A DNA stretch of 64,000 nt from Yuukianura sp. NJ FZ-2021 (GCA_046563655.1 CM102283.1:8432001-8496000), one strand, 5' to 3'. Counted from the stretch's first letter, positions 14,400 to 30,401 are shown. A program made the numbers and translations. The notes: generated by a model from the letters alone, not told the origin.

Positions 14400-17300
14400 T
14401 TACTTCGCTTGTCCAAAATCTGCTGACGTTGGATCAGTATCCTTGACGTCTTTAATTTCTTTGACCTTTAATTTCTGTGACGTCTTTGACTCCTTGCGTT
14501 CTTTGACGTCTTTAGTCTCTTTGACGTCTTTGAATTCTTTGCCGTCTTTGCCGTCCTTGACTTGCTTGACCTTTGACTTGGTTTCTTTCAGGTCCAGCTT
14601 CTCTTTTGCTTCAGTGCGCTTGAGGTCATGCTCCAGCGATGTCCTGCTAACTTTGTCCTTGGCAGCTTCTGACTTTGATCGCTTCGATTCCCCCAGCAGC
14701 TCTTCTTTTTCTTCCAGCCGCGAAGTATGGTAGTCCTTGGCTCTACGCTGAATTTTTTCCATTTCAGCGATTCTTTGAGCAAGACGACCATAAGGACTAC
14801 GTGGAGCGTCGTAGCGCTGAAACCAAAAAAAAACGCAATGAATTTCCAGAAAAAATTGTCAGAAAAATCTTCTTGAAAAACTTACTTTTTGTAAATCTTC
14901 GACCATTTTCTGCTGTTCCTGTTGCTCATAAGTTCTGTTGGGTTCGACATCTACTGTCCAGACGATGTTCCTTGCAAAGTAAGTGTAACTGGCCAACAGG
15001 ATGAGCACTAGAAAGGCAACTGTTGCCAAATAGACAAAGGGCAAGTAGGATTCGATCACTTTCTTCTGTTGAATGATGTTCGTCACTTGGAGTATGAAGA
15101 AAGTGTCCATTTTCTGGCAGTACGTGAATCGATTGTACTCTGTGTTCACTACGACTGCGCGGATCAAGTAAATGAAGTTACGCTTTTTCTTGAGTCGCAA
15201 GGAGTTGCGATTCGTCTGATTAAACACAAAAAACTGAACAGAGTCCAGTTCTTGGATAGGAACCAAAGGAAGGATTTTTTGAACGTCCTAAACAAAAAAT
15301 AAACATGAAAAAAATTGTTATTATTATTATTTTTTGCAAATTTTCTAAAAAAGTTTTTAAATAGTTTACTTCTTGTCTATACGAAGGGCGGCGGGAAAAA
15401 CAGTCTTTGAAGTAGCGGTAAATATCGGCGTACACAGGAAGTTCTTTCATGAAATTTGCTCTTTCGGCCATGTTTGAATACCAGTCCTCCCTTTTAAAAA
15501 AAATTTTTTTTTTAAATTTTGAAACTTTGAAATTTTTGAATTTTAGTTTTTTTTTGTGGTTACCCTGAGACGAGGCATCCTGCGTCATACTGAGTCGTGT
15601 TTGCTTCCATTTGAAAATCGTCTTCTTTGAAAGAATCCAAAATGTCGTACATGACGACATTGCTGGTGACACGTCGAACGTGTTCGGTCAAAAATTGCTC
15701 AAATTTTGGAATCAAAATGTCACGAAACGACAATCCATATACGTTGTCCTCAACTCTTTTTCCAGCAGGAATTGGAATCTAAAGTAAAGAAAGAAAGTTA
15801 AAGTCAAGATGAAATTAAAATTTGAAATTTGTAGTTTCGGAATTACTCGGCAGTAGTCGGGATTCCGACAGTCGAACACTTTGTACTGTTCTTTATGCAC
15901 GAGTGCTTTAGAGACTACTAGATGTGAGACGCCGGTGGCTTCTGAGTCGGTGGCATCATGGTACCACATTGTGGGTTTGAGGGCATGTGAATGAAGACTC
16001 TTGTCCCATGGAGCAACGTGCAGTTTGGTCACTGGAACGGCTTCGGCCACTAACCGCATCCGGGTTAACGGCACACAGCCGATATTCATTTGAATTGTCT
16101 AAAAAAAATCTTTTCTAAAAATTTTTTTTCAAAAAAGATTCAAAATTTTGACAAGGAATTTTCTTACTCTGAAGTAATGTTTTTTGTCACAATGTAAATT
16201 GAGCACACTGGGGCGAATTGTGAGCGTAAAAACACGAACTTCTTCTGCTACATGATCTTCGTCGTCCTGGGTTCGGAAGTGTTCGGTATACATACTTTGC
16301 AGCATCTTATTTTTGGAAAACAAAATTTAGAATTCAAAAATTTGTACACTTTTTGCCAAGGTTCGTTGACAACTAAAAGTTAATTTTCTTTAACAGGTTG
16401 GGCACTACCCTTCGGTTGTTGGCAAAAAATAGTACCAATTTAGTATTAATTCGTAAGCAAAATTGAAAAAAAAAATTGGCTGTATTGTTATGACTACGAT
16501 GCACCGAAATGAAAAGATACTTTTTCTTGCAAAATCAAAAAAACATGAGGTATTACCCAACCTGTTGAAAAAATCTCAAGTCAACACCTTGCTTTTAAAA
16601 AAAACACTCAAAACCTATCGTCATACCGGATCAGGAAGAAACGTTTCCAGTTCAATAATTTTCCGAATGATAGTCTGGTCATACTGGACTTCCAAAAACG
16701 ACGATACCTGAAATCAAAAATTTGAAAATTTCGAAATTAAAAAGAAAAAAACTTTCTCACCACAACCGAAACGCCTTGAATTTCGGAAAACTCTACGAGA
16801 ATGTCTGCTTCTAGCGGAATACTGTCACCATAAAACGCAACTTCCGCTGTAATCCTGGTCATGTACTCTACAAAATTTAAAAATTAATGTCAGGAAAATC
16901 CAAAATTCAAAATAAATTTTTATAAAAATTTGCAATTTTTTAAAACCTACGTGCTTCAACGTATGGATAAGATCGGTAATAAACTTCGAAACTGGCAAAA
17001 GGACAAATGGGATCGGCAAAAGACGATTCGTCATCGGCAGTATTAGTTTCTCTGTTGATTGGCGTTTCTCCCAAGGGAATGACATTCTCCCCAGCACTTC
17101 TGGCAAAGGAGCCCTTAAGAAGGGACCAAAAGGGGACATTGAGCATGACAGTTTGAGGGGGCCCTTCAAAGGAATCCGTGTCGCTGTTGTACGTTAACTT
17201 CCCATAGAACACTTCCCCATCTTCTGTTGACTGCTGGAACACATTGTTTGATACATGGAACGGATGGACGAAGCGGAGCGGTTCATGTGCCAGGGCAGAA

Positions 17301-28600: not shown

Positions 28601-30401
28601 GATTTTGATTTTGAAGCCCCAGTAAGGTCTGGAAATCGTTTTCAAATTTTGAGATTCTTTTTGGAAAATTTTGAGTTTTAGGTTAGTTTTTGATGATTAG
28701 GCTTTGCTCATGCGCTGTACCCCAAAAGTCTTTGGCTGTCATGGAACCCTCTCAGTCCGCGCACGTCGCCATCAACGATGTACTGAGCATCGGATATGAC
28801 TTCGATCGCGGGATGAACGAACCGCAGACACGGAACGAGTCCGCCGAGGGCAAATTTTTTCGTAAGTACTTGCGAGTATGAGCTGGGATGCAAGTATGTT
28901 GGAGAGTACAGTTCATCATAGGATACTTCCGAAGGATCAGCAATCCAAACCTTAACGGTCTGCAAATGACATAGGTTTTGGAAAAAGTTAGGTAAAGGTC
29001 AAAGGTCAAAGCCAAATTTTGAAAATTTTGGAAAAACTTTGAATCTGAAGAAAAAATTGTCGCTTTGTTTACATATTCCTTGTAGATTCCTCCAGAAGCG
29101 GCTGGATTTGGCTCGAAATGGACAAATCCGACTGTATTAAACAAAAGGTTTGAAATTTTCCGTTTTCTAAAGAATTTCAAAATTTTGAAAAGTTTTTACA
29201 CACCTTCGTTTTCCTTGATGAGTCTGTAGCTCCATCTATAGCAGTAAGAATTTTTGACGATTTTGATTGGATCCGAGTAGTACCAAGGATTTTCCAGGGA
29301 AGTTTTGTCTTGTAGCAGCGCTTTTTCGTACTCGATGAAAAACATTCTGTTCAAAAGGAAACCAAATTTTGAAAATTAAGGTTTCGAAAACTTTTTTTTT
29401 GAAAAAAATGTACTTTGGGTCTAGAAAGTAAGACAGAAATTGAGAGGCATCAAAGAATTCCTGCGTCTCTTCCATTCGTCTGTATGGAACACCATCAATG
29501 ACGTCGTTTTCATTTTTGAAAGTTCCCGTGACACGGAAAAAAGCATAGTACGTTCCGGCCATAAAACAGTCAAACACTGCCTTGTGACCATTCCCACTAC
29601 AAAAAAAAAGTCAAAAAATTTTGATAAACTGATTTCAAATTTTGAAACTTTTTTCAAATTTGGAAAGTGATGACAAAACAAGAGATGAATTGTTTTACTA
29701 GACGAGTTGTGGCATGCAACGTTGTTGACGAGTTCCAGCATAAACGGCCCACTGTCCTTTACTAAATTTGTGAACCACTGGATCAACTGACACTGAAATC
29801 TGAAATTTCAAAATTCCCAAAATTTTGAAAAACTCAAAATTGAAAAATTTTTTGTTAGGATAATGAAAGTGATTGGTTAGTACTCACGGTGTCTCCTGTT
29901 GTGTGATCATAAGTTCCATCTACAGGTCCATCCACATTTGACCTTGTATGAGTTAGCACTCTGAAATAGTCAAAATTTGAAAAAAAAAATTTACCTTGAC
30001 CTTTGACCTGTTTTAGTTTTGAATTTGTACTGAATGAGGTTGGTGTAGGGGCGAGTAGCATCTTTGCCTCCAAACTTTGGGAGTAAAGTTAAATCCAAAT
30101 TGTCGGCTGCAATACGCTCGCGAATTTGTAGTTCCGACTCCTTGAAAAACAGCGTATCACTGCCAACGTAGCGCTTGAATCGATTCAGACTTGAGGAATT
30201 TCTGGATTTGTTGTGACTTCGTTGCTGCCTAAAAACTGATATAAAATTTTGAACTTACAAAAAAATAAGATTTTTTTTATGTTTATAAAATTTGAAATCA
30301 AGAGTTACCCTACTTGTATTTTTTGAATCCGCAATCATTTGGAAAGAACTAGCAAAAATGAAAATCAATAACACAAAGTACGGTGTGTAAAACACCATCA
30401 T
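22608..30401 (-). CDS. CatSper auxiliary subunit epsilon-like, copy B (tandem paralog)
   Basis: Signal peptide MMVFYTPYFVLLIFIF. Collinear with copy A (KVWIADPSEVSYDEL..PSSYSQVLTKKFALGGLVP, DPICPF, NIGCVP, YLFRAVVVNTEFNPFTYC, TM helix); short cytoplasmic tail ending ...GDKKND*. Confidence 0.75.
23922..24112. mobile_element. Intronic MITE, subfamily 2, perfect 8-bp TSD
   Basis: CAAGGTT...CAGGTTGTCCAA / TTGGACAACCTG...ACCTTG; CTTTCAAA on both sides. Confidence 0.85.
27138..27349. mobile_element. Intronic MITE, subfamily 2, perfect 8-bp TSD
   Basis: Same TIRs; GCCAAAAT on both sides. Confidence 0.85.
27811..27992. mobile_element. Intronic MITE, subfamily 2, 7/8 TSD
   Basis: Same TIRs; flanks AGTTTTAC and CGTTTTAC. 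Confidence 0.85.

Follow-up and report, generated by a model that had tools for sequence, protein, structure and literature searches.

Candidate CatSper delta/epsilon-type auxiliary subunit genes in tandem in Yuukianura

The window analyzed here is a 64,000-nucleotide (nt) stretch of the genome of Yuukianura sp. NJ FZ-2021 (GCA_046563655.1 CM102283.1:8432001-8496000). Its minus strand carries two adjacent genes, B and, downstream of it, A, which probably encode divergent members of the delta/epsilon auxiliary-subunit family of CatSper, the sperm calcium channel. The original prediction, made from the sequence alone, had described two intact and collinear genes of about 8 kb with CATSPERE-type ectodomain motifs in an arthropod, and had proposed as checks the splicing of both proteins, profile and structural comparisons with the CatSper subunits and an estimate of dN/dS (the ratio of nonsynonymous to synonymous divergence) for the pair. 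The genes were as described, with the ends given exactly: position 30401 is the first base of the B start codon and position 14400 the last base of the A stop codon, both frames are open with the terminal stop as the sole stop, and all introns (25 of 25 in each gene) have GT-AG ends. Splicing gave proteins of 1699 (A) and 1642 (B) amino acids (aa). Only 316 nt separate the B stop codon from the A start codon, and an AATAAA hexamer lies about 135 nt past the B stop codon.

Exon junctions were solved jointly for the two genes, under the conditions that introns end in GT-AG, that the frame stays open and that the peptides across each junction agree, and a translated comparison of A with B gave collinear matches from end to end. 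A check independent of the A/B comparison was provided by three springtail proteins, all 61 of whose tblastn matches sit on modeled exons, in order and on the minus strand. There is no third copy or fragment in the window, as none of 70 high-scoring segment pairs fell beyond 14300-30500. The B exon 1/2 junction is uncertain in that an alternative donor/acceptor pair retains the intron phase of A and alters two residues. Median intron lengths are 78 and 84 nt for the two genes. In four cases an intron of one gene is missing from the other; A and B have two such introns each, and none of the four has a length divisible by three. Several of the longer introns contain repeats. Intron 7 of gene A, its longest (408 nt), is filled by a minisatellite (20481-20868), in which five copies of a 53-nt unit (89%) form part of a longer, degenerate array, and two other long introns of gene A hold a second repeated element, 86-88% alike (16480-16585 and 18489-18596; families D9 and D17). 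In gene B, three of the four long introns owe their length to small inverted-repeat elements (23919-24113, 27135-27349 and 27809-27992) resembling miniature inverted-repeat transposable elements. The 18-nt arm motif of these elements has six matches in the 64 kb, all in gene B introns, where 0.06 would be expected.

Both proteins begin with a hydrophobic segment (residues 1-26 in each) followed by an ectodomain of about 1480 residues that contains 17-18 cysteines and 13-14 NxS/T sites. A single further strong hydrophobic segment lies near the C-terminus (A residues 1504-1536, B residues 1517-1543) and precedes a charged tail. On this layout, which comes from hydropathy only, A and B are predicted to be type I membrane proteins with a signal peptide and one transmembrane helix, as had been proposed, and are best explained as glycoproteins with a cysteine-framed ectodomain. 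The tails of the two proteins differ in the manner predicted. The A tail past residue 1536 is 163 aa long, 48% charged and encoded in part by a 9-nt repeat (13.6 copies, 14443-14561), whereas the 99-aa B tail lacks the repeat. Two other motifs of the original prediction fared less evenly. The furin-type site, RVKR in A and RFKR in B, is real and common to both proteins, but the springtail relatives described below have nothing that corresponds to the exon-2 segment holding it (by alignment, and with an hhalign probability of 0.3 against the family profile). The site is thus not a family feature, and cleavage there is conjecture. Likewise, the charged helical segment is present in exon 13 of both genes, but a proline-rich stretch stands at that place in the Orchesella relatives, although exon 13 as a whole aligns to the family profile (hhalign E 1.3e-8).

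Relatives were found by HMMER search of 1.84 billion representative sequences using a profile of exon 10, which returned six proteins at E ≤ 0.001. P0001 and P0002 are short fragments, and two are collinear homologues: P0004 (Allacma fusca CAG7651678.1, partial, 1075 aa) and P0006 (Orchesella cincta Ocin01_11426, 1457 aa). The remaining two do not run collinear with the family and were not retained, P0003 being a repeat protein matched in 12 short stretches and P0005 a 321-aa protein with Cep192/HYDIN-type Ig domains (E 6.3e-4). The set was then extended by searches with P0006 and, after it, the family profile, which contributed P0007 (O. dallaii CAL8118378.1), P0008 (O. dallaii CAL8118336.1), P0009 (O. 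cincta ODM91996.1) and P0010. A word-indexed search with exon 10 of A among longer proteins gave no match in 88 candidates, and one profile search with the family alignment returned nothing past the five proteins known by then. All of the named relatives are springtails, from two orders, which bears out the predicted arthropod origin indirectly, and the A/B clade has so far been seen only in springtails.

A and B are 30-35% identical to these proteins and collinear with them from the first conserved N-terminal block to the transmembrane helix. The cysteine framework is shared: A has 18 cysteines, and 16 of them are conserved across all family rows with a residue at the position. The stem and transmembrane region is the best conserved across the family, with 23 invariant columns in A 1301-1400. 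Two Orchesella members already carry the UniRef label 'CATSPERD/E C-terminal domain-containing protein'. In addition to lacking the exon-2 segment and the charged helix of A and B, the Orchesella proteins have a Cys-rich insert of about 100 residues that is absent from A and B.

The link to CatSper is supported by four kinds of evidence that are concordant, each weak alone: an N-terminal Pfam match, a C-terminal Pfam match in the relatives, a protein language model and fold searches. The window proteins were given to Pfam, the fold tools and the sequence searches exon by exon rather than as whole spliced proteins, and consequently the N-terminal domain in question, which is divided among exons 7-9, was scanned in pieces only. 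The Pfam CATSPERE_NTD2 model (PF22843, cut-off 27 bits) was matched by two of 16 stop-to-stop frames and by two of 19 exact exons, in each case exon 8 of A and of B, with nothing else of note. The B frame, at 29.5 bits, was the sole window sequence over the cut-off. At the other end of the family, P0006 and P0007 (two of the six family members) passed the CATSPERD-E_C model (PF22850, cut-off 27.4 bits) with 30.5 bits and E 3.3e-7, the P0006 match covering residues 1205-1367, just before and into the transmembrane helix. As NTD2 was not matched in the springtail proteins and CATSPERD-E_C was not matched in the window exons, the two-ended link rests on transitivity. The required alignments were obtained with hhalign: exon 8 of the window aligns to P0006 residues 62-126 (E 2.2e-14) and exon 25 to residues 1281-1442 (E 2.9e-22), within the Pfam match of P0006. 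Hence, the two matches fall at opposite ends of a single family, as expected. Alignment to the family profile was also found for exon 10 (E 7.6e-13) and for A exon 22 plus B exon 21 (E 2.5e-11). No beta or gamma CatSper model of Pfam was matched in the six family members at E ≤ 1.

The Atlas protein language model gave a similar picture. The ten best named clusters for P0006 were all CatSper epsilon, gamma, delta or beta, with scores of 0.83-0.89 (epsilon first at 0.89, gamma clusters reaching 0.88 and beta clusters 0.85), values below 0.9 that serve as leads only. For the fold searches, AlphaFold models of P0004 and of P0006 residues 956-1457 were run with Foldseek against 350,542 PDB chains. 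The P0004 model, which covers the N-terminal 1075 aa, had a sole match at E ≤ 0.001, chain 7eeb_H of the CatSpermasome (E 1.1e-7, 1148 columns; next match 0.061), and the sole match of the P0006 model at that threshold was the same chain (E 2.8e-4, 134 columns; next match 0.034). A mouse CatSper dimer chain, 9ubw_E, was reached by the P0004 model at E 0.26 only. Chain 7eeb_H has 916 residues, a length compatible with mouse epsilon. Thus, the CatSper epsilon-like kinship stated in the original prediction gained support from profiles and from structure, the structural part coming from models of low confidence.

A number of observations weigh against assignment of A and B to the delta/epsilon family. 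The exact exon 8 sequences score 25.4 (A) and 26.4 (B) bits and fall below the NTD2 cut-off, and the model was unmatched in all six springtail homologues at E ≤ 1. Conversely, none of the 11 window C-terminal exons scanned singly matched CATSPERD-E_C at E ≤ 10. The epsilon/delta beta-propeller and Ig-like models (for epsilon, PF22844 and PF22849) were silent, matching none of the six family members at E ≤ 1 and no window exon, and about 850 residues between the two matched ends fit no model. Sequence searches of the PDB with three exon profiles, two family profiles and P0007 alone found no CatSper chain at E ≤ 10. An Atlas search with the longest window exon gave no usable match, and the P0006 scores are leads, as noted. 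The structural models are poor: mean pLDDT (predicted local distance difference test) is 47.3 for P0004 and 53.8 for the P0006 part, with predicted template-modeling (TM) scores of 0.35 and 0.32. The Foldseek TM-scores are 0.09-0.15, with a root-mean-square deviation of 31.6 over the 1148 columns for P0004, and hence the 7eeb_H matches are alignments in a local-structure alphabet, not superpositions. Moreover, the search output does not name the subunit of 7eeb_H, which we take to be epsilon. Finally, A and B exceed mouse epsilon (985 aa; PMC12851028) in length by a factor of about 1.7, and no pore gene was present among the larger open reading frames scanned with Pfam in the 64-kb window.

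The models are confident only over the beta domains at the N-terminus, a single beta sandwich ahead of the stem, and the transmembrane helix. The part where propeller and Ig-like domains would lie is below a pLDDT of 50 for most of residues 452-987 of P0004, and the 7eeb_H alignment of 1148 columns that runs over it has a TM-score of 0.10. Self-comparison of the middle 706 residues with hhalign detected no propeller-blade repeat.

Of the 1615 residues aligned between A and B, 962 (59.6%) are the same in both, and the Nei-Gojobori method gave dN 0.32, dS 1.68 and the dN/dS value of 0.19 that the original prediction had left to be computed, indicating purifying selection on both copies. Divergence is not uniform along the genes. 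Where the two genes encode an identical residue, their third codon positions agree at a rate of 0.76 as far as residue 438 and of 0.48 beyond, and none of 200 shuffles reached the likelihood ratio of this change point. The 5' part has 80.6% DNA identity over 1035 nt, of which 360 are intronic, so that introns align as well as exons, and exon 3 reaches 95% identity across 91 nt. In the 3' part, alignment is limited to exons. Values of dS are 0.6-0.8 in the 5' tract and saturated elsewhere, and dN is 0.75 across the last 100 codons. The 5' third has probably been homogenized by later partial gene conversion, which is the simplest reading. In an unrooted maximum-likelihood tree of eight rows, none left out, A and B are sisters with support of 100/100 and the Orchesella paralogues split inside their own clade. 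The A/B duplication is therefore separate from that of Orchesella, and we infer that the pair arose by a lineage-specific duplication. As with A and B, two Orchesella paralogues are found together on one contig.

Table 1 Positions of genes A and B and of their features in the window
Feature	Position	Strand	Basis or remark
Gene B, ATG to stop	22608..30401	-	26 exons, 1642 aa; springtail protein matches on exons 6-25
Gene A, ATG to stop	14400..22291	-	26 exons, 1699 aa; springtail protein matches on exons 8-25
B exon 1, start codon and signal-peptide-like hydrophobic segment	30309..30401	-	Hydropathy; alternative exon 1/2 junction exists
A exon 1, start codon and signal-peptide-like hydrophobic segment	22195..22291	-	Hydropathy, junction
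B dibasic motif RFKR, residues 46-49, exon 2	30171..30182	-	Followed by Y-V-G
A dibasic motif RVKR, residues 48-51, exon 2	22063..22074	-	Followed by Y-I-G
5' tract of higher similarity, from exon 2 to mid exon 10	A 19859..22075; B about 28331-30183	-	DNA identity, change point, dS
B exon 8, CATSPERE_NTD2 (PF22843) match	28721..28959	-	29.5 bits, E 8.1e-7 (frame); 26.4 bits, E 7.4e-6 (exon)
A exon 8, CATSPERE_NTD2 match	20237..20475	-	25.0 bits, E 2.1e-5 (frame); 25.4 bits, E 1.5e-5 (exon)
B charged segment, residues 661-720, exon 13	26847..27026	-	29 of 60 residues charged
A charged segment, residues 656-715, exon 13	18796..18975	-	27 of 60 residues charged; includes the peptide quoted in the original prediction
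B exons 23-25 to transmembrane helix	22980..23711; helix 22980-23060	-	Counterpart of the P0006 CATSPERD-E_C region; hhalign, hydropathy
A exon 23 (second half) to exon 25, including transmembrane helix	14961..15697; helix 14961-15059	-	Counterpart of the same P0006 region
A-only introns	17871-17951, 17310-17390	-	Gene models
B-only introns	24934-25035, 23711-23785	-	Gene models
B exon 26, shorter cytoplasmic tail	22608..22814	-	Repeat-free
A exon 26, K/E/D-rich cytoplasmic tail	14400..14816	-	9-nt repeat at 14443-14561

Other genes lie around the pair. An arrestin-domain gene (Pfam; 30849-32138, minus strand) is directly upstream of gene B, and the window also has a full-length gene for U6 spliceosomal RNA (33976-34082, minus strand, 111.9 bits). 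Beyond these the plus strand has three tandem two-part genes (34632-40169) that encode multi-pass hydrophobic proteins, the large exons of the other two being 79% and 44% identical to that of the first copy. Assignment of these as gustatory receptors was dropped, as there was no Pfam match at E ≤ 1. Pfam also identified a CCAR/DBC1-like gene (45840-50754, minus strand; S1-like, DBC1, LAIKA and SAP domains), a succinate dehydrogenase flavoprotein gene (54362-56222, plus strand) and an RBBP4/CAF1 gene (62651-63986, minus strand). On the other side of the pair, at 8152-9420 of the minus strand, an uninterrupted 422-aa frame with a Met start matches Pfam Tox-ART-HYD1, an ADP-ribosyltransferase domain unusual for an animal genome (26.4 bits, cut-off 25, E 1.1e-5). 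The frame had no PDB or PADLOC match.

What the analysis establishes directly is the gene structure, purifying selection, springtail homology and the domain- and fold-level links to CATSPERE/D. On this basis we consider it probable that the A/B clade belongs to the delta/epsilon family of CatSper auxiliary subunits as a divergent branch lying nearest to epsilon, with the canopy role known in mouse. The ectodomain would be one component of the canopy that covers the CatSper1-4 pore on the outside of the sperm flagellar membrane, the stem and transmembrane helix would sit beside a pore subunit, and the channel would depend on the proteins for its assembly and stability. The canopy role and the domain order are described in PMC12851028 and PMC13484710, which also give the mouse findings that canopy genes are turned on earlier than pore genes in spermatogenesis, suggesting that the canopy forms first, and that loss of delta or epsilon destabilizes the pore. 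By analogy with that system, we infer expression of A and B in sperm and assembly with a pore. Springtails have been reported to possess a CatSper4-like transcript, an expressed sequence tag (EST) from Onychiurus arcticus (PMC2572835), and CatSper1, listed for O. cincta in Table 1 of PMC13674862. Because of these reports, A and B are read as canopy subunits of a retained channel of springtail type.

The A/B family has in common with mammalian CATSPER epsilon a predicted type I topology, a putative NTD2-type segment near the N-terminus and a putative delta/epsilon-type stem by the transmembrane helix. In contrast to epsilon, A and B are a tandem pair and about 1.7 times longer, sequence models recognize no propeller or Ig-like domain in the family, and the family has no sequence-level match to the solved chains. 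The homology of delta to epsilon lies in the C-terminal Ig-like, stem and transmembrane parts (PMC5362262 and PMC12851028), the region matched in P0006 and P0007. Delta has no NTD2-type model, and the second copy seen here arose within the A/B lineage, not through the vertebrate delta/epsilon split. CATSPER beta and gamma have the same overall build and canopy role and come close behind epsilon in the Atlas, although their Pfam models went unmatched.

The proximity of gamma and beta to epsilon in the Atlas ranking would fit a reading in which the proteins descend from another CatSper auxiliary member, or from a lineage-specific offshoot, and their place in the complex could differ. The silence of the epsilon propeller and Ig-like models, the UniRef name 'subunit beta' of the Orchesella paralogue P0008 and the lack of a subunit name for 7eeb_H point in the same direction. 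We consider this origin unlikely because the only Pfam matches are to the epsilon-specific NTD2 and to the delta/epsilon C-terminal domain, in the correct order, with no match to a beta or gamma model. Moreover, both Foldseek runs chose one chain of 7EEB and no other canopy chain at E ≤ 0.001, 9ubw_E being far from significance.

There is also a slim chance that A and B are true but distant relatives of CatSper subunits that no longer work with CatSper and have been co-opted as adhesion or receptor-like membrane proteins of another tissue. Such a history would fit their length, far above that of known epsilon and delta, the lineage-specific additions (the exon-2 segment, the charged insert and the Orchesella Cys-rich insert), the fast evolution and repeated duplication of the paralogues and the lack of a pore gene among the larger reading frames scanned in the window. 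It fits poorly with the report of CatSper pore subunits in springtails, with the interdependence of canopy subunits and pore in mouse and with the stem and transmembrane region being the best conserved part of the family, including the invariant columns of A 1301-1400. That the resemblance to CatSper is due to chance, and the proteins are an unrelated lineage-specific type of type I membrane protein, seems very improbable. Each link is indeed weak, with bit scores at the cut-offs and models of low confidence, and the PDB sequence searches were empty. However, four kinds of evidence converge, the domain order is right and two fold searches share the same top chain out of the 350,542 available.

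Given membership in the delta/epsilon family, a further proposal, which we consider unlikely, is that a second canopy subunit of delta/epsilon type has originated independently and repeatedly in lineages of springtail type, paralleling the vertebrate duplication of epsilon that gave delta, and that A and B are not redundant. The basis for this proposal is that the A/B and Orchesella pairs are separate duplications of a single epsilon-like gene and that both A and B are under purifying selection. A and B would then stand side by side at two different poles of a heterotetrameric canopy, the similar 5' tract would reflect a shared roof contact, and the diverged stem, transmembrane helix and tail would reflect pairing with different pore subunits.

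CatSper is usually described as lost from arthropods. Cai and Clapham (2008) report it to be absent from the sampled protostome genomes. Springtails are an exception to this loss and have been noted as such only through the pore-subunit EST and a single table entry. In our literature search, no publication dealt with the auxiliary subunits of CatSper in springtails or in other hexapods. What appears to be newly added here is therefore a pair of members of a known CatSper auxiliary family, assigned by weak similarity, rather than a new kind of system. If the assignment holds, the canopy part of CatSper has been kept as well, much enlarged and duplicated. According to PMC5362262, epsilon dates back as far as CatSper1-4, beta and gamma, with delta appearing later. 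A and B would provide a non-deuterostome reference for the ancient parts of epsilon and delta, namely the NTD2 core, the cysteine framework and the stem with its transmembrane helix. They may also bear on which parts of these subunits are free to vary and on whether a second subunit of delta/epsilon type is a recurrent need.

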